This document shows positions 4,658 through 19,984 of a stretch of 43,444 nt of DNA, piece after piece. The DNA comes from an uncultured Pseudomonadales bacterium (lineage in GTDB: Bacteria; Patescibacteriota; Microgenomatia; UBA1400; UBA12028). Location: NCBI GenBank assembly GCA_964574065.1, contig CAZNKS010000001.1, positions 1 through 43,444 of the forward strand, read 5' to 3'. Both the position numbers and the translations under genes were made by a program. The notes under the pieces are model-generated. The model did not search any database and was not told where the DNA came from. It worked only from the letters and a program-made list of their open reading frames with translations. Position 1 is the stretch's first letter. The number at the start of each line of letters is the position of its first letter.

Positions 4658-5752
4658 TTACAGTATTCGGACACAACTTTGTGTGAACATATCCAAATTC
4701 CCATCCAATACTGCCGTGGTATCTGAGGTTTCAACTTTCGTACGCGTGTCTTTCACCAAGTGATATGGATGAAGCACGTAGTTGCGAATTTGATTTCCCC
4801 ATCCTGCAATCTTGTGTTCACCTTTAATGTTTGCAAGTTCCTCCCCTCGTTTTTCTTCTTCCATTTGGGCAAGCTTACTCTTCAAAATAGAAAGCGCAGT
4901 TTTTTTATTTTGTTCTTGATAGCGCTCTTGTCTGCATTCCACGATTATGCCTGTGGGGATATGACGCAAAATAACTGCAGAGTTCACTTTGTTTACATTT
5001 TGTCCACCGTGTCCACCTGCCCGAGTAAACTGCCATTCCAAATCATCAGGTTTTACCTCAATCTCTTTATCATCCTCTTCAATCAGTGGCATGACTTCGA
5101 CTCCCACAAATGATGTTTGTCGAAGATTATCGGCATTGAAAGGAGAAAGTCGCACGAGTCTATGAGCTCCTCCTTCGTGTTTGAGCAAGCCATATACCAG
5201 GTCACCGTGGACAATATAGGTAACAGACTTTAAGCCTTCTTCGGCTCGTGATTCTTCAACTGTCTCCCACTTCCAGCCTTTACGTTCAAAGTATCTTGTG
5301 TACATACGTGACACAATACTTGCCCAGTCGCAAGCTTCGCTTCCACCTTGTCCTGCATGGATAGAAAATACCGCATCACGAGAATCGTATTTGCCAGAAA
5401 GAAAAGTTTGAATTTCTAGAGCATCCAGTTCCTGTTCAAGGGTCTGTACGGTTTGTGCGTATTCTGCTTCTAAAGCTGGATCATCTCCACTACCAATAAG
5501 TTCCTCAATACCTATGAGGTCAGAAAATTTTTTTTCAGTCTTGGCAATAACAGCAAGCACATTTTCAATTCGCGAAATTTCTTGACCGACAGTTTTCACC
5601 TTTGTTTGGTCATTCCAAAAATCTGGATTTTCGCGCTGAGAAGACAACTCTGCCAGTCGAGTTTGTTTTTCAGCTACCCCAAGCCTGTCTGAGATGGCAG
5701 AAAACTTAGCAGACAGCTCTTCTCTTTTGGTCGTTAATTCGTACGCAATCAT
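4658..5752 (-). CDS. prfB: Peptide chain release factor 2, a single uninterrupted frame
   Basis: SPF tripeptide (RLSPFNADN) and GGQ motif ([12 protein letters not shown]). The track start at 5782 is a TTG. The ATG at 5752 ([13 protein letters not shown]) gives about 364 aa, typical for RF2. Confidence 0.9.
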
Positions 5753-5802
5753 AGGAGTATTGTACAGCCAAAAAGCAAGCAATCAGAGGATAGACTCGAA
5801 AT

Positions 5803-5842
5803 CTATAGAGGAGTTTACGCCTACATGGAGTGGAAGGGTCAA
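5803..5842. repeat. Degenerate remnant of the cassette repeat (central module) at the prfB-proximal edge of the island
   Basis: ctatagaGGAGTTTACgCCTacatgGAGtGGAAGGGTCaa compared with the repeat core ATAGGAGTTTACCCTGAGCGAGGCCGAAGGGTCGG. It lies just downstream of the HEPN gene stop (5943), where a cassette-terminal repeat is expected. Confidence 0.45.
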
Positions 5843-5942
5843 CGATATTGCTCTACTGCCACGCGATCCCCGCTTTGGCGGTGGAAACACTTCTCCCGTG
5901 TGCTTGCGCTGCGGGAATAACCCATTTTCAGATAAGAACAAC

Positions 5943-6305
5943 TTATTGCCCCACCTTGCTTAATAGTTCTAAAAGTTGTTTTTTGAGCTGAGGTGCCTCT
6001 ATGGTGGCTGCTTGCCAAACAATCTCTGCATCGATATCCCAGTATTCGTGAGCCAATTTATTTCGCATGCCAATGATCTGGTTCCATGGGATATTGGGGT
6101 TCGAAGAACGAAATTCTTCTTCCAGGTGTGAACAAGCTTCTCCGACAATTTCCAAATTTCGTACAACCGCATCGTACATCATTTCATTTTTTGAAAATTT
6201 AGCTTGATCCGTATTTTCAAGATACTCATGAATCTTGGTAACGGCACCAATAATATGCTGAATGTATGGGCTAGGACTCTTTTGCATACACAATTTGAAG
6301 ATCAT
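5943..6305 (-). CDS. hepT: HEPN-domain (DUF86, HepT-like) toxin
   Basis: Rx4H motif in GMRNKLAHEYWDID. About 115-120 aa. The gene overlaps the 3' end of the upstream MNT gene. An alternative ATG is at 6287. Confidence 0.8.
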   Translation of the reverse strand: MIFKLCMQKSPSPYIQHIIGAVTKIHEYLENTDQAKFSKNEMMYDAVVRNLEIVGEACSHLEEEFRSSNPNIPWNQIIGMRNKLAHEYWDIDAEIVWQAATIEAPQLKKQLLELLSKVGQ

Positions 6306-6573
6306 CTTGGATATATGGTTTGATATATTTGCTCAGTCCCTGTCTAGTTACTAAATCAACTTTCACTCCCAAGGTATTACTTAGTTCTTGTTCTAAGCCT
6401 ATAAATTCTATGAGTCCTGGAGTTTTTTCAAATGAAACAAGCAAGTCAATATCACTTCCATGTTTTTGATCACCCCGAGAATATGAGCCATACAATGCCA
6501 TGTATGAAATACCATTATTCTTGGCAATCTGTTGAAGGGCTTGCTGATGTTTTTGGATTAACACTGGTAGCAT
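6271..6573 (-). CDS. mntA: Minimal nucleotidyltransferase (MNT-type) antitoxin
   Basis: LYGSYSRGDQKHGSDIDLLV contains the GSxxRG...DxD Pol-beta-type NTase motif. The ATG at 6573 (MLPVLIQKH) is preferred. The track's longer start at 6627 runs into the repeat. Confidence 0.8.
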   Translation of the reverse strand: MLPVLIQKHQQALQQIAKNNGISYMALYGSYSRGDQKHGSDIDLLVSFEKTPGLIEFIGLEQELSNTLGVKVDLVTRQGLSKYIKPYIQDDLQIVYAKES

Positions 6574-6605
6574 TTCTCTAGTATAACAAAAAAATTTGTA
6601 AGGGT

Positions 6606-6714
6606 GTTTACAAACTCTCAAAAACACGATAGGAGTTTACCCTGAGCGAGGCCGAAGGGTCGGATCTATGGAATGAAATAATAACTCACTTCCAGATCAA
6701 TAATCCTATAGTTT
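6606..6714 (-). repeat. Cassette repeat copy 1 (long form, 109 bp)
   Basis: GTTTACAAACTCTCAAAAACACGATAGGAGTTTACCCTGAGCGAGGCCGAAGGGTCGGATCTATGGAATGAAATAATAACTCACTTCCAGATCAATAATCCTATAGTTT. It lies between the stop of ORF 6734..7249 and the start of mntA. Confidence 0.95.
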
Positions 6715-6733
6715 GTTATGTTTTTGAGATCAA

Positions 6734-7249
6734 CTAAATTCTACGCGTTGCATTCCCTTGTTCCTCAGTTCTTATTTGTCCCTCATGTACATAATCCTTC
6801 AAAGGGACATACTCACCTTCTTTACCGACACAAATTCTAGCTCCCATTTCCTGAAGTAACTGACTGGTAAACACCTCATCAAACCCAGGAAACCTTACAA
6901 ACAACACCTCTCCTTGATATTTTCGCATATACTCCCAACTTGGAGGTCTTATTTGATGTCCATGCCCCTCATGACCCTTCATTTGATCGAAGTCAGAGTG
7001 ATAAACTAAAAGAAACGGTTGGAGTTTATTAAAAGTTTCCTCATTTAGATCAAGCTTAATTACACATGGTTTTGATTCACGATGAATTGTTGCTGCTTTT
7101 TTTGCATAGCTCCAGTTAACATCCTGATCCCAATCTAAGGAGAAAGATATCGGTCCTTCCACAAGGGTATTTGACATCAAAACTTGCTCAATAATCTCGC
7201 CATTCTTTCCTGTGTGTGTCCCTCTAGATAATGTTATTTTCTCTGCCAT
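6734..7249 (-). CDS. Hypothetical protein (171 aa) with a His-rich segment
   Basis: Clean ATG ORF that exactly fills the space between repeat copies 1 and 2. Contains MKGHEGHGHQIRPP. I recognise no family. Confidence 0.55.
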   Translation of the reverse strand: MAEKITLSRGTHTGKNGEIIEQVLMSNTLVEGPISFSLDWDQDVNWSYAKKAATIHRESKPCVIKLDLNEETFNKLQPFLLVYHSDFDQMKGHEGHGHQIRPPSWEYMRKYQGEVLFVRFPGFDEVFTSQLLQEMGARICVGKEGEYVPLKDYVHEGQIRTEEQGNATRRI

Positions 7250-7270
7250 ACGTTTAATTGTACCAGGACT

Positions 7271-7379
7271 GTTTACAAACTCTCAAAAACACGATAGGAG
7301 TTTACCCTGAGCGAGGCCGAAGGGTCGGATCTGTGGAATGAAATAATAACTCACTTCCAGACTAAAAGTCCCATAGTTT
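7271..7379 (-). repeat. Cassette repeat copy 2 (long form, 109 bp)
   Basis: The first 62 nt are identical to copies 1, 3 and 6. The 3' part diverges (..TTCCAGACTAAAAGTCCCATAGTTT). Its end overlaps the stop codon (7378-7380) of ORF 7378..8007. Confidence 0.95.
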
Positions 7380-8007
7380 ATAATGTGTAAATACCCTTAG
7401 TGATAAGTGATAACCCAAAGTGGTATTCAAGAGCCTCATGTACTCTTTCTACTACATCACTATTAACTTCATCCCAATTAACCAATTCTCCCGAGTCAAT
7501 AATTCGAACTTTCCCAGATTCATCTAACACAAATTCTGCTGTGCTTGGTGGCCAAAGTCGTAACTGTCTGAGTAAATTTTCAATTCTTTCAACTTCAGCT
7601 CTGCGGAATCCCTCATCGGCAACTTGTAGTTCACCTGGTTTAAAGTCTATAAACTCCATTTCTATAACAGCACACGAATCATCATTTTGGACACTAAAAA
7701 AACGAGCTGGCAATTCACCTAGTAGACTTTGGTTTCTAACCTCTCGTTCAAACGATTCCTTTCTAAAAGAGTCTAGTGGTTTTGGATACCAGCTTGTTGA
7801 ATCTGCAAATTTTGGCTTAAAAATTACCTTGTAAGCCTTACCTGTGGATTCTGATAAGAAAACTGATCCAACTTGTCCCCTACCAACAAAACTGAAAGGT
7901 CCTGCTTGAGGAAAGTGCTTTTGTAAGATAGTGATGGCGATCTTAAGATTTTCCGGAGAGAGAGTACTATCTTTTCCTCTCTCACCATATTTCGGTTTCT
8001 CAGGCAT
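7378..8007 (-). CDS. Small protein-kinase-like-fold protein, possibly a degenerate or pseudokinase (209 aa)
   Basis: G-loop-like VGRGQVGSVF, Lys candidate in AYKVIFK, Glu candidate in FEREVRNQ, hinge-like AVIEMEFID and DFG-like RIIDSGE. There is no recognisable HxD...N catalytic loop (PPSTAEFVLDESGKV instead). Confidence 0.35.
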   Translation of the reverse strand: MPEKPKYGERGKDSTLSPENLKIAITILQKHFPQAGPFSFVGRGQVGSVFLSESTGKAYKVIFKPKFADSTSWYPKPLDSFRKESFEREVRNQSLLGELPARFFSVQNDDSCAVIEMEFIDFKPGELQVADEGFRRAEVERIENLLRQLRLWPPSTAEFVLDESGKVRIIDSGELVNWDEVNSDVVERVHEALEYHFGLSLITKGIYTL

Positions 8008-8036
8008 ATAATTGATATCTTAACCCATGAAAGGTT

Positions 8037-8146
8037 GTTTACAAACTCTCAAAAACACGATAGGAGTTTACCCTGAGCGAGGCCGAAGGGTCGGATCTGT
8101 GGAATGAAATATTAACCGAGTTCCAGATAAATTAATCCTATAGTTT
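8037..8146 (-). repeat. Cassette repeat copy 3 (long form, 110 bp)
   Basis: The 62-nt core is identical. The hairpin stems ATCT/AGAT and GGAA/TTCC are retained although the loop differs (..AAATATTAACCGAG..). Confidence 0.95.
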
Positions 8147-8156
8147 TTTCTATCCT

Positions 8157-8459
8157 TTAGTCAAATAACTCTTTGTTTTGATCTAGGTAATATTTAGTTC
8201 TCTGGTCACTCTTATCAATTTTAGTCTTTAATGCTTGAAGAAGATCAAGCAACTCACGTTCCATTTTGTATATTTTATCCTGACATTCTATCGGTGAAGG
8301 TCTGGAAGCATGGAAGAACTCTCCTCTAATGTAGCGAAAGAATTCGACTGAAAGTACGAGTTTGGGATATGTTTCAGCAACGTCTTCCTGAGACTGAGCT
8401 TGTATTAACTCTTTCTTGATAAGCGTAAAAAGATCATCTGCTAAGTAACAGAAATCCAT
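8157..8459 (-). CDS. Hypothetical helical protein (100 aa), third gene of the orphan three-gene cassette
   Basis: The ATG at 8459 is separated by 1 nt from the stop (8461-8463) of the upstream ORF, which suggests translational coupling. The track's longer version begins inside the upstream gene. Confidence 0.5.
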   Translation of the reverse strand: MDFCYLADDLFTLIKKELIQAQSQEDVAETYPKLVLSVEFFRYIRGEFFHASRPSPIECQDKIYKMERELLDLLQALKTKIDKSDQRTKYYLDQNKELFD

Positions 8460-8460
8460 T

Positions 8461-8709
8461 TTAGAGACCCCCGCCGTGATTATTCTTAGCTTCGTAATAT
8501 TCAAAAGAAGCGACATCCAATCGATCTAGAAGTCTATGATCAAGAGCTGAGAATTTTTCCATAAAGATTTTTCTATCTTCGCCAGAAAGAGGCTCTTCAC
8601 CGTTCTTTTCAAGCAATACAATAAGTTGCTTCAAGTATGAAAGTGCTGTGTTCCTTGCTTCAATGTACGCTTGTTTTTTTTGCACTTCTATTTGCATTGC
8701 ATCAGACAT
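8461..8709 (-). CDS. Hypothetical helical protein (82 aa), second gene of the orphan three-gene cassette
   Basis: ATG ORF with AAGGA about 8 nt upstream. It starts 15 nt after the stop of ORF 8725..9585. Confidence 0.5.
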   Translation of the reverse strand: MSDAMQIEVQKKQAYIEARNTALSYLKQLIVLLEKNGEEPLSGEDRKIFMEKFSALDHRLLDRLDVASFEYYEAKNNHGGGL

Positions 8710-8724
8710 ACTCTATCCTTTCGA

Positions 8725-9585
8725 CTAGTTTCTACTTATCAGAGCCATATAGGACTTCATATTTTCAATGTGTCGGTGTAGCTCTTTGAAAAGTGTTTCT
8801 TGACTTCGAGATTCTTGATTAGGCAATTCACCAGTTTTAGGATCTGCCTGCGGATCAACATATCTACGCATAGCAACAAACCTATTTTCTATTGCAGAAC
8901 CCACTCTATCAAACCATGAACTTAATTCTGTCAATTGAGACTGCATCTGTTCTACGGTTTCAGCTTTTGATACATTCTTCAAAAAGTCATTTACTCTTGC
9001 CGTAGTTTCTACACCTTGTCCTGAACCAAAGATGCTCATAATTGTGCCTTGAGCTGCATTTGCATCTACAGAAATTTGATACATTCGATTCCAAGCACCT
9101 TGGAATTCACTCATTGCAGTCTTCACGGTTTGGAGATTGACTTCTTTATTCTGATTTTCGATCTCCTTTGGTGCAACACCAGTCCCTGTCTCTGTTTCAG
9201 TCTGAGGAGGTGTAGCTGTTGGAGTTTCACCTGCCTCTGCCGTGTCCTTAGCCTTTTCTGTTGTTTGTTCGCTTGAATCACCCCCAGTAACTTCCGGCTG
9301 TCTAGTTTTGGTTTGCTCTTGCATTTGCATACCTCTTGCTCTCATGAATTCAACCATCATAGGATCAGATGCGATCGCATCATTTAGTGCTTGAAGCTGA
9401 TTGGTTTCACCCATCGCTTTTGCTTGCTTACCTCGCTCAACATAGTCTTTAGCCTTCTGAAGCTTTTCGTTTTCAGCTTTCACTTCATCCATGGTAAATT
9501 GCTCATCATTTGTGTTTTCCTCGGGACGTACCCCTTGCTGTTCTTCTATAGCCATTTCTTCAAATGATGGTTTGGATTCCGACAT
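8725..9585 (-). CDS. Hypothetical acidic protein (286 aa): disordered E/T/Q-rich N-terminal half and helical C-terminal domain
   Basis: ATG ORF and first gene after repeat copy 4. The N-terminal half is low complexity (..TEKAKDTAEAGETPTATPPQTETETGTG..). The C-terminal portion of about 130 aa is helical. I recognise no family. Confidence 0.55.
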   Translation of the reverse strand: MSESKPSFEEMAIEEQQGVRPEENTNDEQFTMDEVKAENEKLQKAKDYVERGKQAKAMGETNQLQALNDAIASDPMMVEFMRARGMQMQEQTKTRQPEVTGGDSSEQTTEKAKDTAEAGETPTATPPQTETETGTGVAPKEIENQNKEVNLQTVKTAMSEFQGAWNRMYQISVDANAAQGTIMSIFGSGQGVETTARVNDFLKNVSKAETVEQMQSQLTELSSWFDRVGSAIENRFVAMRRYVDPQADPKTGELPNQESRSQETLFKELHRHIENMKSYMALISRN

Positions 9586-9632
9586 AGCCTGGAGTATAAA
9601 AGCATTTTGAAGAAACTTAAAGTAGCTAGTTT

Positions 9633-9716
9633 ATTTACAAACTCTCAAAATCACGATATGTGTCGGATCTATGGAATGAAATAATAACTCAGTTCCAGAT
9701 TAAGAATCCTATAGCA
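9633..9716 (-). repeat. Cassette repeat copy 4 (short form, 84 bp)
   Basis: ATTTACAAACTCTCAAAATCACGATATGTGTCGGATCTATGGAATGAAATAATAACTCAGTTCCAGATTAAGAATCCTATAGC. The 29-nt GC-rich module AGGAGTTTACCCTGAGCGAGGCCGAAGGG is replaced by ATGTG. Confidence 0.9.
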
Positions 9717-9718
9717 AA

Positions 9719-10090
9719 TTATGTTTTTATCCTAACAAAATAGAATTGATTTAATTCGTCTCCACCTGCCACAAATTTATGTTTACTTCCAGCAGGAATA
9801 ATAATCACATCGTCAGGTTTATACTCCACAATTTGATCTTCCCAATAAAACTTACCTGTACCAGCAAGAACAACTCCTAGTTCATCATGATCATCATGTA
9901 TGTGCCAATCCCAATATTGGCCTGGTTTCAATAAACCTTTAGTCATTGCATCAATGTTGTCCGTTACCAAATCATCTTTGGTTGCTAAAGTTTGACGAGA
10001 ATCAGGAAGATCATGTGTGCCTTCAAGTGGTATTTCGCTGATGTGTTTTATTTGGAACATTTTCATCGTTAATGTGATTCTATCAGACAA
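9719..10090 (-). CDS. Cupin-domain protein
   Basis: Cupin motif 1 in WDWHIHDDHDELGVVLAGTG (HxH-x4-E-x6-G). The track start at 10090 is a TTG. ATG alternatives are at 10066 and 10060. Confidence 0.7.
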   Translation of the reverse strand: MSDRITLTMKMFQIKHISEIPLEGTHDLPDSRQTLATKDDLVTDNIDAMTKGLLKPGQYWDWHIHDDHDELGVVLAGTGKFYWEDQIVEYKPDDVIIIPAGSKHKFVAGGDELNQFYFVRIKT

Positions 10091-10109
10091 GTGAGGATAT
10101 ATGAGAACT

Positions 10110-10195
10110 ATTTACAAACCCACAAAAATACGATACATGTCGGATCTATGGAACCAAATTGTAACTCACTTCCAGATCAAGGAGCCTATAGCTTT
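10110..10195 (-). repeat. Cassette repeat copy 5 (short form, 86 bp, the most diverged copy)
   Basis: ATTTACAAACCCACAAAAATACGATACATGTCGGATCTATGGAACCAAATTGTAACTCACTTCCAGATCAAGGAGCCTATAGC. It lacks the GC-rich module. Confidence 0.85.
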
Positions 10196-10203
10196 ATACG
10201 TTT

Positions 10204-10749
10204 TTACTGACTCAAGAACTCAGGAAACTTAATAATTAGTAATCCATATGCGCTGATAGTTGGAGCATCGGTAATCTGGCCTTGTTCGACAGCTTGAGCA
10301 AACTCTACTGGAGTCAATTCCAAACGCTCTAATCCTACTTCTGTTAAATCAAGATTTGCTTCTTTTTGAACAAGATCAGTCGCTAAATAAATATGAAATC
10401 CTTGATTACTGTAACCTGGTGCTTCGTGTAAAAATCCAATGTGTTTTAGTTTGTTTGCCTCAAACCCTGTTTCTTCAAGTAACTCGGCTTTTGCCATAAG
10501 ATCAGAGTCTTCATCTGGCTTATCTTCATGTTTACCCTGAGGGAATTCAATAGATTCTTGTTTAGTAGGGTAACGATACTGTTTAACTAAATGAAATTTC
10601 TTACCGTCAAAAGGCACAATTAAAGCAAAATCTGATTTATCAACGACTCCATAAATACCTTTATGTCCATTCGGAAACTCAACTTCATCTTCTAACACTT
10701 TCATCCATGGATTTTGATAGACAATCTTTGTTGCCAATTGCTTAATCAT
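10204..10749 (-). CDS. NUDIX hydrolase (ADP-ribose pyrophosphatase-like)
   Basis: Nudix box GKHEDKPDEDSDLMAKAELLEETGF (E-x7-[R/A]ELLEETG). 181 aa. Confidence 0.8.
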   Translation of the reverse strand: MIKQLATKIVYQNPWMKVLEDEVEFPNGHKGIYGVVDKSDFALIVPFDGKKFHLVKQYRYPTKQESIEFPQGKHEDKPDEDSDLMAKAELLEETGFEANKLKHIGFLHEAPGYSNQGFHIYLATDLVQKEANLDLTEVGLERLELTPVEFAQAVEQGQITDAPTISAYGLLIIKFPEFLSQ

Positions 10750-10787
10750 GTTTATATTCTATCTTGTAGGTGTTGTCTGGGAAAGGT

Positions 10788-10896
10788 GTTTACAAACTCT
10801 CAAAAACACGATAGGAGTTTACCCTGAGCGAGGCCGAAGGGTCGGATCTATGGAATGAAATAATAACTCACTTCCAGATCAAAAGTCCTATAGTTT
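10788..10896 (-). repeat. Cassette repeat copy 6 (long form, 109 bp)
   Basis: Identical to copy 1 except for a few bases near the 3' end (..CCAGATCAAAAGTCCTATAGTTT). Confidence 0.95.
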
Positions 10897-10975
10897 ATTT
10901 TGTTTTTACTGGTAACGAGTCTCCTACTTCTCAGCCAATAACTCAAAAGCTTGCTTTGGCTGAAATCGATTAAGT

Positions 10976-11281
10976 CTACTCTGTATCCAGAGAATCATTA
11001 TCATCCATATTCATTTCTGCGGCAACCATATTACCCCAGATCTGCATGAAGACTTGCATAGCTCCGTCTATCCCAACTAAATAGGCATACTCGCTTAAGA
11101 CCATCTTTGCTTGCTCTTCGTCGGCATTTCTTATAGCAATTTCTAGCAATCTTTTTCTCGATACAGACCAATCAATAGCACTATCTTTCAAATAATCTCT
11201 TGAAGGCAATTCAGTTGGTCTTCCGTTTGGAAAAACTTCAGCAACCCAAGCTTCACGAGATTCAAAACTAAAAACTGACAT
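10976..11281 (-). CDS. Hypothetical small acidic protein (101 aa), coupled to the upstream nuclease-like gene
   Basis: ATG with AGGAG 8 nt upstream. It starts 21 nt after the stop of ORF 11303..12238. The C-terminus is acidic (MNMDDNDSLDTE). Confidence 0.55.
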   Translation of the reverse strand: MSVFSFESREAWVAEVFPNGRPTELPSRDYLKDSAIDWSVSRKRLLEIAIRNADEEQAKMVLSEYAYLVGIDGAMQVFMQIWGNMVAAEMNMDDNDSLDTE

Positions 11282-11302
11282 AGAAAATTCTCCTAATAAT
11301 AA

Positions 11303-12238
11303 TTATTTTTCTTTCGTTTCAAGGAATTTTTTATATACTTGCTTCATAATGAAGACTGCGTAGTCAATATCTTCTGGTTTCTCGATATTCATCCTCGACA
11401 CATGATGATGGAAATACTCATAGGAGTTTTCCATGTAGGAGACCTTCTTTTCAGGATCATTGAGTTCTTCAGGTCTTGTTCTTCCAAATTCAAAACCTAG
11501 TTTGTTTCTATATACCTTCAAAACGGCGATATTCCATCTACCAATGTTGAATCCAATGTAAATCTTGGTCGGTTTTACTTCAATTCTCGAGTCAACAGCA
11601 GTAACTTTTTGCTCAAGTTCGTCAAACAACTCTCTACTGTGTTTACTACCTTCTTTAAAATGATCATCTATTGAATAACTTTTAATCTCCCTACTCACTT
11701 TTTCAACTACTTGATCATCTGTGATTTTACTAATTGATTCTTTTGCATTTTTTGCTTTGATCTGGTTATAGAGCAACGTGCCATTCTCAAAAACCTTTAC
11801 TTCCCAAAGTTGAATCGGTAAATCTTTAAAGTTAATGGCATTTTGCTGATGGACGGTAAAAGAGTTAGCAATAAAAAGCACTCTAGATTGTGACCAGTCT
11901 ATATCTTCCCGCTTCAATGTTTGTCCAAGTTGCTCGTTATACTCAAGGATAAACTCCGCTTTTTGATTCAGCATCAAGGACAAGTAAGCAAATCCTTGAT
12001 CAATAATTGAAAAACTTCTATCCCGTTTATACTCAAGAATTACAAACGAGCCAGTACTTTCATCAAAAGCAAGAGTATCAATTCTCAAATCTCCAAGTTG
12101 GAGTTCAGATTTAACAAAAGTGAGTCCAAAAATCTCTGATAGGTTCTGCTCTGTAAGACTTTGGATATCTTTTTCGAGCTCTATCTTCTTTTCATTAATA
12201 GTTTTCAGCTTTTTGCCATTGATCTGAAAAAGTGGCAT
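11303..12238 (-). CDS. PD-(D/E)XK nuclease-like protein (NucS/DUF91-type core) with a C-terminal DUF5655-like region
   Basis: LRIDTLAFDESTGSFVILEYKRDRS matches the D...E-x-K core of NucS/DUF91-type nucleases. 311 aa. It is the first gene of the island. Confidence 0.55.
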   Translation of the reverse strand: MPLFQINGKKLKTINEKKIELEKDIQSLTEQNLSEIFGLTFVKSELQLGDLRIDTLAFDESTGSFVILEYKRDRSFSIIDQGFAYLSLMLNQKAEFILEYNEQLGQTLKREDIDWSQSRVLFIANSFTVHQQNAINFKDLPIQLWEVKVFENGTLLYNQIKAKNAKESISKITDDQVVEKVSREIKSYSIDDHFKEGSKHSRELFDELEQKVTAVDSRIEVKPTKIYIGFNIGRWNIAVLKVYRNKLGFEFGRTRPEELNDPEKKVSYMENSYEYFHHHVSRMNIEKPEDIDYAVFIMKQVYKKFLETKEK

Positions 12239-12286
12239 ATTTGATCTGGATTATACATCCAAATTGGTTTTTTACCTATGGATATA

Positions 12287-12315
12287 CCAACTCTCATAGA
12301 GTTAGTCCTATTTTT
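12287..12315. repeat. Strongly reduced remnant of the cassette repeat at the tatD-proximal edge of the island
   Basis: CCAACTCTCA-TAGAGTTA-GTCCTATTTTT resembles three collapsed blocks of the repeat (CAAACTCTCA / TAGGAGTTTA / GTCCTATAGTTT) in the same orientation. Confidence 0.3.
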
Positions 12316-12444
12316 GTAATCCTGAGTAACTTGAGATTGGCATTTATTGAAGTTGTAATGAGCCGTGTTCTTTTTGAAGATTTGTCAACCAATCAATAAA
12401 GAATTTATTTGCTTCAATTCTTATTTGTGGCCGGGAGGATAGAA

Positions 12445-18604: not shown

Positions 18605-18987
18605 TTTCTAACTTCTCGAGCGTCTTTTAGACGAAGATCAAAATCAATTGGCGGGAATGGAATAGATTGCTTATCAGGATCACCTTGTTCTGCACGATCA
18701 AGCATAGGATTGATCTCTTGTTCCAACTCATTGGTTGAAGGAGTTGGTAGCACAGTAGGAAGTGGTGTTGGCTTCTTTTCTTGACCACTACCAGAGTGTT
18801 GGGTAGCAAAATACCCTATAAATCCTACTACAGAGAGAACTATGAAAAGAATCAGGACAAATAAAAGAGGGGATGGCTTTTTTACCTCACGGTTTTCTTG
18901 TGGTGCCTGTGGTTGCACTGGACTTGGAGCAGTTACGAACTGCTGTTCTGTGGTAAAGTCAGTTTGATTTTTTAGTTCGTCACTCAT
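18601..18987 (-). CDS. Hypothetical single-pass membrane protein
   Basis: 128 aa with TM segment LLFVLILFIVLSVVGFIGYF. Its start overlaps the upstream stop (ATGA at 18984-18987). Confidence 0.5.
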   Translation of the reverse strand: MSDELKNQTDFTTEQQFVTAPSPVQPQAPQENREVKKPSPLLFVLILFIVLSVVGFIGYFATQHSGSGQEKKPTPLPTVLPTPSTNELEQEINPMLDRAEQGDPDKQSIPFPPIDFDLRLKDAREVRN

Positions 18988-19781
18988 TGAGATAATTCCT
19001 TCGCAAAAGATATCCCTTGTAATAGTTTTATATATCCTTTTGATAGAGTTTCTGATATTTCGCTCCCTTTTGTCTCTGTTGTCGATCTCGTACTGTACTC
19101 TTCATAGAGTGCATTTGCGCCGATTAGGGAATCAGCAACAGCTGTAAGGGTACGCTCTAGTTCATCAATTCCCCGACGCTTTTCTACCCTTCTTGTTTCA
19201 CTGATAGGAGCAAATTGTACCCAATTTTTAATTCGTTCTTTGGCTTGGGTTACTTCATCTAGAGACTCTTGCATGCGTCCAATCTTGATTAACGATTGTG
19301 CCAGATCTACCAGCTTTAAATAGTCCTTTTGTCTTTGAGAGAACCAGAGTGCTTCCTCATCAACTTTGAGTCGATCAGTTGCGATATCTACTCTGGTTCT
19401 ATGCGTCTTGAGTTCATCCATGGTAAGTGTCAGGCGTCCGAGTATCTCATTTCGTCGTTGCACATCAATAGTCTGCCTATTCGATAGTGCCTGTGAAAGC
19501 ATGTTCAGGTATATCAAGGTTACGTCGACACGAGTCAAAAAAAGGTCTCTCCCAATCCGCACTGCCTCTTCCTGGGAAGCCAAGGTTTTGAGGTTATAGT
19601 ATTGCTGGACCGAAACAGTGTAGAGTTCCCGTTTGGTTCTATACACCTCCAATAGATTGCGATATTGCCCCTCCAAAACAGGATATTCTGGACCAAAAAC
19701 GCTCTCTGATTGCGCCAATACCACTCGAGGAGATATGGCAAGTAAAAGACCGGTAATAATCAAGAAAGCGAGAGTTTTCAC
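18984..19781 (-). CDS. Hypothetical secreted helical protein
   Basis: GTG start. Signal peptide MKTLAFLIITGLLLAISPRVVLAQ, then helical or coiled sequence. It forms an operon with 18601..18987. Confidence 0.5.
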   Translation of the reverse strand: MKTLAFLIITGLLLAISPRVVLAQSESVFGPEYPVLEGQYRNLLEVYRTKRELYTVSVQQYYNLKTLASQEEAVRIGRDLFLTRVDVTLIYLNMLSQALSNRQTIDVQRRNEILGRLTLTMDELKTHRTRVDIATDRLKVDEEALWFSQRQKDYLKLVDLAQSLIKIGRMQESLDEVTQAKERIKNWVQFAPISETRRVEKRRGIDELERTLTAVADSLIGANALYEEYSTRSTTETKGSEISETLSKGYIKLLQGISFAKELSQ

Positions 19782-19984
19782 ACCACTTAGTGTAGCAAAA
19801 ATGGTATACTACACATAGAGCCAGTATAGATTTCACCTTTTGGTGATAGTAACTATACCGGTATCAAGTATTAGTTTTTGTGTGCTTTCTACAGCATAAG
19901 TGTTGTTCCTGCTTCGTGATTTGTTGCAGTGAGATGCTCCATGATGTGAAAAGCTTTGACCATTTTGAAAGGTGGTGAACACAC

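Follow-up and report, generated by a model that had tools for sequence, protein, structure and literature searches.

A probable junction site of small gene cassettes, with a nested mini-hairpin, in a genome of the Candidate Phyla Radiation

The window analysed here is positions 1-43,444 of contig CAZNKS010000001.1 (assembly GCA_964574065.1), from an uncultured member of the Patescibacteriota whose relatives are labelled Candidatus Woesebacteria. It contains six direct copies of a repeat that separate small cassettes of one to three genes. We read the repeat as the junction site of mobile gene cassettes, an attachment-type site of the form P-core-P' in which a left arm (P) and a right arm (P') meet at a short core, and we read the longer copies as sites into which a ubiquitous mini-hairpin was secondarily inserted. 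The probability of this overall reading is put at roughly 0.6, and its first part, the junction site, is favoured to much the same degree. The repeat is restricted to this region in the whole assembly (1.05 Mb, 97 contigs, 42.6% GC).

All six copies lie on the plus strand and all the genes between them on the minus strand. A 20-nt pattern drawn from the repeat gives six matches where 0.37 would be expected by chance. Four copies are long (106-107 nt) and two are short (82 nt), and a decayed seventh copy lies at one end of the array:

6606-6711, plus strand: copy 1, long form (P arm 6606-6630, module 6631-6659, core TCGG 6660-6663, P' arm 6664-6711)
7271-7376, plus strand: copy 2, long form
8037-8143, plus strand: copy 3, long form, carrying one inserted nt (1 nt) within its P' arm
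9633-9714, plus strand: copy 4, short form, which is the form of all relatives
10110-10191, plus strand: copy 5, short form, the most diverged copy
10788-10893, plus strand: copy 6, long form
about 5795-5938, plus strand: seventh copy, decayed, terminal and interrupted, next to prfB (local alignments equalled by 16/1000 and 1/1000 shuffles)

Several statements of an initial annotation, made from the letters alone, agree with these data. The 62-nt string said to be identical in the long copies occurs exactly four times (starts 6606, 7271, 8037 and 10788), the 29-nt segment AGGAGTTTACCCTGAGCGAGGCCGAAGGG of the long copies is replaced by the five nucleotides ATGTG or ACATG in copies 4 and 5, and the two short copies bracket the cupin gene at 9719-10090. 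The 29-nt segment, called the module below, has a GC content of 62% versus 32% for the remainder of the repeat. The seventh copy consists of a partial P arm, the module-like sequence AGGAGTTTACGCCT at 5808-5822, and the right half of a P' arm at 5916-5938 directly after the HEPN stop codon. It is interrupted at about 5843-5915 by GC-rich self-complementary stretches, such as CCACGCGATCCCCGCTTTGGCGGTGG and CCCGTGTGCTTGCGCTGCGGG, which are possibly further nested mini-hairpins.

The 62-nt string proved to be a composite of the 25-nt P arm, the module and the short core TCGG(ATCT). The P arm is the left 25 nt of the site (GTTTACAAACTCTCAAAAACACGAT), the core is TGTCGG (CCGACA on the gene strand), and the P' arm is the right ~48 nt, ATCT.TGGAATGAAAT..TAAC....TTCCAGAT...CCTATAG. 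On the gene strand (minus), a cassette runs in the order core, P arm (..CACATATCGTGTTTTTGAGAGTTTGTAAAC), one to three genes, P' arm (CTATAGG..GATCTGGAA..TTCCATAGAT) and core (CCGAC). Among 60 related genomes searched, three carry the repeat (G010, G012 and G013), all of the same family, and a pattern scan of public genomes added three further contigs. Every copy in the relatives is of the short form, the module being absent from all 12 of their sites. The P arm is identical in G013 and contig L097, which are members of other genera, and TCGGATCT is likewise conserved in all copies compared. The identity of the 62-nt string had been ascribed to constraint or to recent homogenisation. Recent copying holds for the module only, and the identity of the P arm across genera points to constraint instead. 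One scan of metagenomes and one of genomes with the hairpin pattern returned just a handful of extra copies, so the site family is narrow. A search of this genome for a dif-like or other additional copy of the site gave only chance matches inside genes.

The halves of the repeat also occur separately in relatives, where they flank cassettes, and all of these half sites have the boundary of their similarity at TGTCGG (CCGACA), which matches the final bases of tRNA-Pro. Cassettes start exactly at the tRNA-Pro 3' end (CCCCGAC). On the gene strand of G010 contig C1, the end of tRNA-Pro(CGG), ...CACCCCGAC, is followed at once by the P arm ACATATCGTGATTTTGAGAGTTTGTAAAC, an MNT-HEPN gene pair and a P' arm. 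Two other arrays, on G010:C4 and G012:C13, have the order P half, cassette, full site, cassette, P' half, and the arrays of G013:C22 and L097 begin at or just after tRNA-Pro(TGG). Tandem elements anchored at a tRNA have this layout, in which full sites separate the units and partial ones close the array, and the anchor itself is present in the relatives and on contig C18 of the same genome. Contig C18 (6435-6935) has a diverged one-gene cassette with an open reading frame (ORF) of ~78 aa at tRNA-Pro(GGG); a diverged but recognisable P arm abuts the tRNA 3' end, and GGAA/TTCC is changed to GGTA/TACC in the P'-like end. The P' arm was also compared with the tRNA-Pro 3' half as a possible diverged copy of it, and beyond the 5-nt core 34-79% of shuffles scored equally well.

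Cassettes are shared as units. Three of the window's cassettes are found again in other genomes, likewise behind these sites, and are listed here with the cupin gene:

5943-6573, minus strand: MNT-HEPN (HepT) toxin-antitoxin cassette, found again at tRNA-Pro(CGG) in G010, where it is bordered by the P arm at one end and by the P' arm at the other
8725-9585, minus strand: 286-aa gene of a three-gene cassette, with a homologue in L097 (E 3e-64)
10204-10749, minus strand: NUDIX cassette, with a homologue beside a P' half-site in G013 (L045)
9719-10090: cupin gene, flanked by both short copies

The window MNT-HEPN cassette, P arm included, has 84.5% DNA identity to the G010 cassette, which occupies a different locus. 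The genes around that G010 locus are syntenic with contig C13 of the present genome, where the tRNA-Pro site holds other DNA. The L097 homologue of the 286-aa gene sits between a full site and a terminal site of the tRNA-Pro(TGG) array there. The arrays of G010:C4 and G012:C13, from one genus, have sites that are alike (80-87% identity) and no genes in common. Against PADLOC, a library of anti-phage defence profiles, the MNT protein matches PDC-S09, and a 311-aa protein at the head of the island (region 10976-12238) matches the phage-defence candidate PDC-S18 (E 5e-101); the 101-aa small protein that follows it has no family match.

The arrangement of full and partial sites is that expected of circular P'-core-P units which would integrate site-specifically at a short core. 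In the mechanism we infer, a circularised cassette would carry P'-core-P, and a site-specific recombinase would exchange strands in or beside the core CCGAC(A). The cassette would thereby enter either the end of tRNA-Pro (CCCCGAC), whose last bases are identical, or a site already in place. Successive rounds would yield arrays in which full sites separate the cassettes and partial ones lie at the array ends, and the TGGAA..TTCCA inverted repeat of the P' arm and its conserved spacer would act as protein-binding DNA. The long form would be a short site after a single event in which a mini-hairpin copy replaced 4-5 nt between P arm and core. Site-specific exchange of the simple kind leaves each P arm with its own cassette, and gene conversion is therefore the probable route by which the module version spread to four or five junctions (the four and the decayed one).

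The whole array of six cassettes, with its head genes, sits between tatD and prfB as a 6.65-kb block. In four genomes of the same family secG, tatD and prfB stand side by side, fewer than about 30 nt separating the stop of tatD from the start of prfB, and a fifth (G013) has an unrelated insert of ~0.6 kb between tatD and prfB. The adjacency in relatives identifies the array as an insertion, with the following features:

5795-12434, minus strand (all genes): inserted island of the six-cassette array and head genes, 6.65 kb, missing between tatD and prfB in relatives
5786-5794, plus strand: 9-nt direct repeat GAGGATAGA, prfB edge
12435-12443, plus strand: 9-nt direct repeat GAGGATAGA, tatD edge
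12349-12434, minus strand: truncated 3' gene remnant marking the tatD edge; the full gene is a 133-aa ORF in the L093 island, to whose C-terminus the remnant is homologous

The 9-nt repeat has just these two occurrences in the window, and a shared 9-nt string turns up in 1.1% of randomly paired 60-nt windows. The edge features (direct repeat, truncated gene and decayed site) suggest that the array was probably assembled elsewhere and then moved here en bloc.

The initial annotation described an imperfect hairpin kept in all six copies of the repeat. Its inner GGAA/TTCC is present in 6/6 copies, but the outer arm is AGATC in copies 1, 5 and 6 alone and reads AGACT in copy 2, AGATA in copy 3 and AGATT in copy 4. 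When 18 P' arm copies were aligned and the 12 proposed pairs counted, no compensatory change was found, in a test whose power is limited by the 78% mean column identity among the copies. Stem cells are paired in 90% of cases, equal to column shuffles, and in 21 cells the pairing is simply lost. The stretches taken for a loop (TGAAAT, TAAC) vary little or not at all and are among the most conserved parts of the arm. For long and short copies alike, and on either strand, folding energies do not depart from those of shuffled sequences (z from -1.2 to +0.8). Two longer-range pairings had also been proposed, ATAGGA with TCCTAT and AAACT with AGTTT. CCTATAG is kept in all short-form copies, though its partner ATAGGA exists only in the long ones, and the distal TCCTAT attributed to long copies reads TCCCAT in copy 2; neither pairing is supported. 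An Rfam search of window positions 5500-11500, with E values up to 10, returned only chance-level matches and tRNAs. With no covariation and a conserved loop, the hairpin lacks support as a selected structure, and a lack of compensatory changes in added copies is the very outcome that the initial annotation had listed as refuting its stems. TGGAA-N16-TTCCA and its conserved spacer are, from this pattern of conservation, most likely a putative sequence-specific protein-binding DNA element and not an RNA hairpin.

The module behaves differently. Its family consensus is (G)TTTA-CCCT-GA-GC-NNA-GY-CGA-AGGG, and a first search found it alone, without the rest of the repeat, in 11 other genomes. Searching for TTTACCCTGAGCGAAGTCGAAGGG with up to 3 mismatches, we found it in 38/286 genomes of the order, with up to 9 copies each, and a reversed-pattern control gave 0 matches. 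The 20-nt module core, with up to 1 mismatch, occurs in 58/401 genomes sampled across the phylum, with up to 18 copies, and the module is present in at least 120 viral contigs among the matches listed, these ranging from 31 to 73% GC. The module is thus, with high confidence, an independent element, as the initial annotation had suspected in proposing an element inserted within an element; its occurrence alone in many other genomes and contexts is what that annotation had listed as refuting a module built into the repeat. The genome studied here has only the four window modules and one diverged copy. The latter, TCCTGAGCGAAGTCGAAGGA (C84:1141-1164), has a compensated stem change and lies beside a CTCAGAATGAC-type sequence, which is possibly another small GC-rich repeat family.

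The module forms two short helices, CCCT/AGGG and GC/GY, in which GA and CGA are conserved and unpaired and the NNA loop varies. Changes on both sides of the stem number 16 cells versus 2.6 expected, a count that 0/500 shuffles reach, in sequences gathered with a mismatch-limited pattern; C-G pairs become T-A, A-T or G-C at three pairs. This covariation within the module family backs the ACCCT/AGGGT stem of the initial annotation. Rfam searches with 12 module loci found no family, only chance-level matches and tRNAs. Modules occur in frame and in both orientations inside CysRS, ValRS, Lgt, RecG, aldolase and other genes (examples are L019 in G006, L075 in G258, L057, L055 and L032), where they encode peptides such as PFDFAQGKP, YPERSRR and LSEVEG. 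Others supply the stop codon at gene ends or are intergenic. Within one genus, ValRS carries the module in three genomes, and in one it has the stems but not the 12-nt loop, still in frame; CysRS of the present genome (C32:5245-5400) resembles the module of G006 without its loop. The module is accordingly a dispersed palindromic mini-insertion, found in frame and present or absent between orthologues. At the window sites it was exchanged for 4-5 nt between P arm and core, a net gain of 24 nt. The four window modules all read GAGGCC, a private variant of the family consensus GAAGTC, and so descend from one insertion.

Some loci place the module in other composite settings. Four genomes have it as the loop of a T-arm-like stem, which a complete tRNA (Ser, Val, Val) precedes by about 60-90 nt, at L018 (G029:C10), L023 (G005:C21), L024 (G040:C12) and L025 (G043:C27). 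There it is followed by an exact duplicate of the last 16-20 nt of the neighbouring tRNA, with CCA in 3/4 of the duplicates, and in two of the upstream tRNA genes CCA is encoded incompletely. The GC-rich viral contigs L135, L116, L126 and L149 show the arrangement CCGTTCG-module-spacer-inverted module-CGAACGG, in which the module is half of a larger palindrome, so the 20-mer builds bigger repeats outside the Candidate Phyla Radiation (CPR). Possible partners were also sought. A relationship to repetitive extragenic palindromes (REP) with a REP-associated tyrosine transposase was considered and rejected: Y1 transposase genes are present in 5/5 high-copy and 2/5 zero-copy genomes, and the five loci examined have no module within 1.5 kb. 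Many modules lie inside ORFs, unlike the extragenic REP/REPIN repeats. The gene of a DUF559 nuclease is found in only 1/5 high-copy genomes, and hammerhead, K-turn and T-loop readings of the module, judged by eye, did not fit.

Other explanations of the repeat were weighed against a cassette junction site. It might act at the RNA level in the cassette transcripts, as a terminator, processing site or stabilising 3' hairpin copied along with the genes and without any role in DNA recombination. Its position between convergently read units of one strand, the inverted repeat it contains, and the location of the P arm 25-60 nt upstream of each start codon (it contains TTGAGA, which has a good -10 partner, TACAAT, in copy 2 only) would suit such a role. 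We consider it improbable, since the 18 copies show no covariation and a conserved loop, folding is no better than in shuffles, no T-run terminator or Rfam match was found, and an RNA role does not account for split halves at array ends or for arrays that begin at the tRNA-Pro 3' end. Promoter or terminator functions were also scanned for separately; consensus scores fell below shuffle expectation, with a good -35/-10 pair in copy 2 only. There is also a resemblance to integrons. Were the repeats true attC sites, the array would be a cluster of attC sites without an integrase (CALIN), recombined by IntI as folded bottom-strand hairpins. As in integrons, short cassettes of one to three genes stand in one orientation, each followed by a single imperfectly palindromic, recombination-type site of about 100 nt (82-107 nt here), toxin-antitoxin and accessory or defence genes are among the cargo, and within a lineage the sites are much more alike than the genes. 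Vibrio chromosomal attC repeats are similar in length to this site. On the other side, RYYYAAC and GTTRRRY motifs are missing from both strands of all six copies, and no pair of them 40-130 nt apart occurs anywhere in the window. No integron integrase was found in the genome or near the arrays of relatives, and the genome's sole tyrosine recombinase, on contig C3, is Xer-like (best matches XerA/XerD/XerC, 158-173 bits), scoring 74 bits with the IntI model against a cut-off of 265. Here the break between half sites, which is the apparent exchange point, falls mid-repeat and not at the 3' end, sequence is conserved in place of structure with no covariation signature of a folded site, and arrays are anchored at the tRNA-Pro 3' end and not at an attI with a Pc promoter. 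An attC identity is therefore extremely improbable.

The repeat could instead be a selfish intergenic element of the REP, bacterial interspersed mosaic element or MITE (miniature inverted-repeat transposable element) type, with the cassettes being island genes reshuffled by homologous recombination between copies. No recombinase was found, copies of 82-107 nt that are 80-100% identical offer enough similarity for homologous recombination, the 9-nt repeats flanking the island resemble those of transposition, and terminal sites are untidy. Against this, the genome has no dispersed copies outside the arrays, orientation is strictly uniform, terminal inverted repeats of MITE type are missing, and the separate halves at array ends break at one fixed point that equals the tRNA-Pro end. 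This explanation is unlikely, although it deserves more weight than a role in RNA. A different possibility concerns the two forms of the site, which could be functional subfamilies with the module built in, for example as a binding site for an accessory protein. The module directly beside duplicated tRNA 3' ends in L018, L023, L024 and L025 makes an association with tRNA-type attachment sites possible, and the module-like sequence in the decayed seventh copy indicates that the long form is not brand new. Set against this, 0/12 sites in relatives carry the module, its orientation relative to the tRNA-end core is in the window opposite to that in the tRNA-linked cases, and the same 20-24 nt are found within unrelated protein-coding genes, where they keep the frame, as well as in viral contigs of widely differing GC. 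Functional subfamilies are thus very unlikely, and a junction site with a secondary insertion is retained as the preferred explanation.

The array is closer in logic to tRNA-anchored tandem islands than to integrons. Cis-mobilisable elements without an integrase (CIMEs) offer one comparison for it. The likenesses are that elements stack beside tRNA genes, copies of a tRNA end mark the junctions, units without an integrase could move in trans, the cargo is for niche or defence functions and the hosts are small and streamlined. These hold also for the tycheposons of Prochlorococcus, tRNA-anchored islands built by tandem integration (bioRxiv 10.1101/2020.12.28.424599). The present units differ from both in being far smaller (0.4-1.5 kb, often one gene), in sharing a tRNA segment of just 5-7 nt, in the conserved ~80-nt P/P' site at their junctions and in that no element examined here encodes its own recombinase. 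For the module, the nearest comparisons are the Rickettsia palindromic elements and the small dispersed repeats of the Nostocaceae (Elhai et al. 2008, Genome Res 18:1484, as cited in PMC3116915). Like them, the module is a very short, GC-rich, dispersed palindrome that nests in other repeats and lies in frame in conserved protein genes. It is shorter and conserved far more widely, being only 20-25 nt long with a conserved 12-nt loop and nearly letter-perfect across the phylum and in viral contigs of very different GC, and neither a module-flanked REP-associated transposase gene nor a consistent DUF559 partner was found.

Several observations weigh against our reading of the repeat. Neither the window nor the stretch of about 10 kb around the relatives' arrays contains a recombinase, save for a large serine recombinase element at G010:C4, and that recombinase family does not track the repeat, G012 having sites only and G003 the recombinase only. 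No recombinase co-varies with the sites among the large serine recombinases and the one Xer-like enzyme present. The shared core is just 5-6 nt, and beyond it the P' arm is unlike the tRNA-Pro 3' half. Several terminal sites retain weak P-arm-like sequence and are not clean half sites. The window array does not lie at a tRNA, and its outer junctions, with a 9-nt repeat and a truncated gene, are unlike those of recombination at the core. Simple site-specific exchange cannot account for the module at four junctions, and the limited power of the covariation test on the P' arm belongs here too.

The large serine recombinase was tried as the cassette enzyme and set aside on this distribution. At G010:C4 (L041) two such genes, at 6436-8019 and 18877-19899, are 78-81% identical, lie in opposite orientation and bracket about 11 kb including the cassette array. 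The first overlaps tRNA-Pro(TGG), and a degenerate tRNA-like end adjoins the P half-site 2.6 kb downstream. In the present genome, contig C25 (1-1711) begins with two tandem large serine recombinase genes, one cut by the contig end and the other containing Ns. tRNA-Pro(TGG), which in relatives is the place of arrays and of such recombinases, was not found in this assembly.

A broader and more tentative formulation, to which we give less than even odds, is that Woesebacteria and related CPR bacteria may possess an integron-like cassette exchange with sites of ~80 nt, a core matching the tail of tRNA-Pro and a recombinase from outside the cassettes, perhaps the housekeeping Xer-type enzyme or one supplied by another element. 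Its sites would be targeted by a ~24-nt hairpin, among the smallest mobile DNAs known, that would also enter essential genes in frame across the phylum. Literature searches by sequence words and by topic found no published description of the cassette site or of the module.

CPR bacteria have tiny genomes with few recognised mobile elements, so that the route by which they acquire accessory and defence genes is unclear. For annotation, the repeat should not be taken as an RNA structure or as an attC site. The nested module shows that an extremely small hairpin moves within CPR genomes, into recombination sites and into the reading frames of essential genes, which bears on the remodelling of protein loops and non-coding sites. 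If our reading of the repeat is true, tRNA-anchored cassettes that have conserved sites at their junctions but lack a resident integrase would offer these organisms a compact means of gene exchange.

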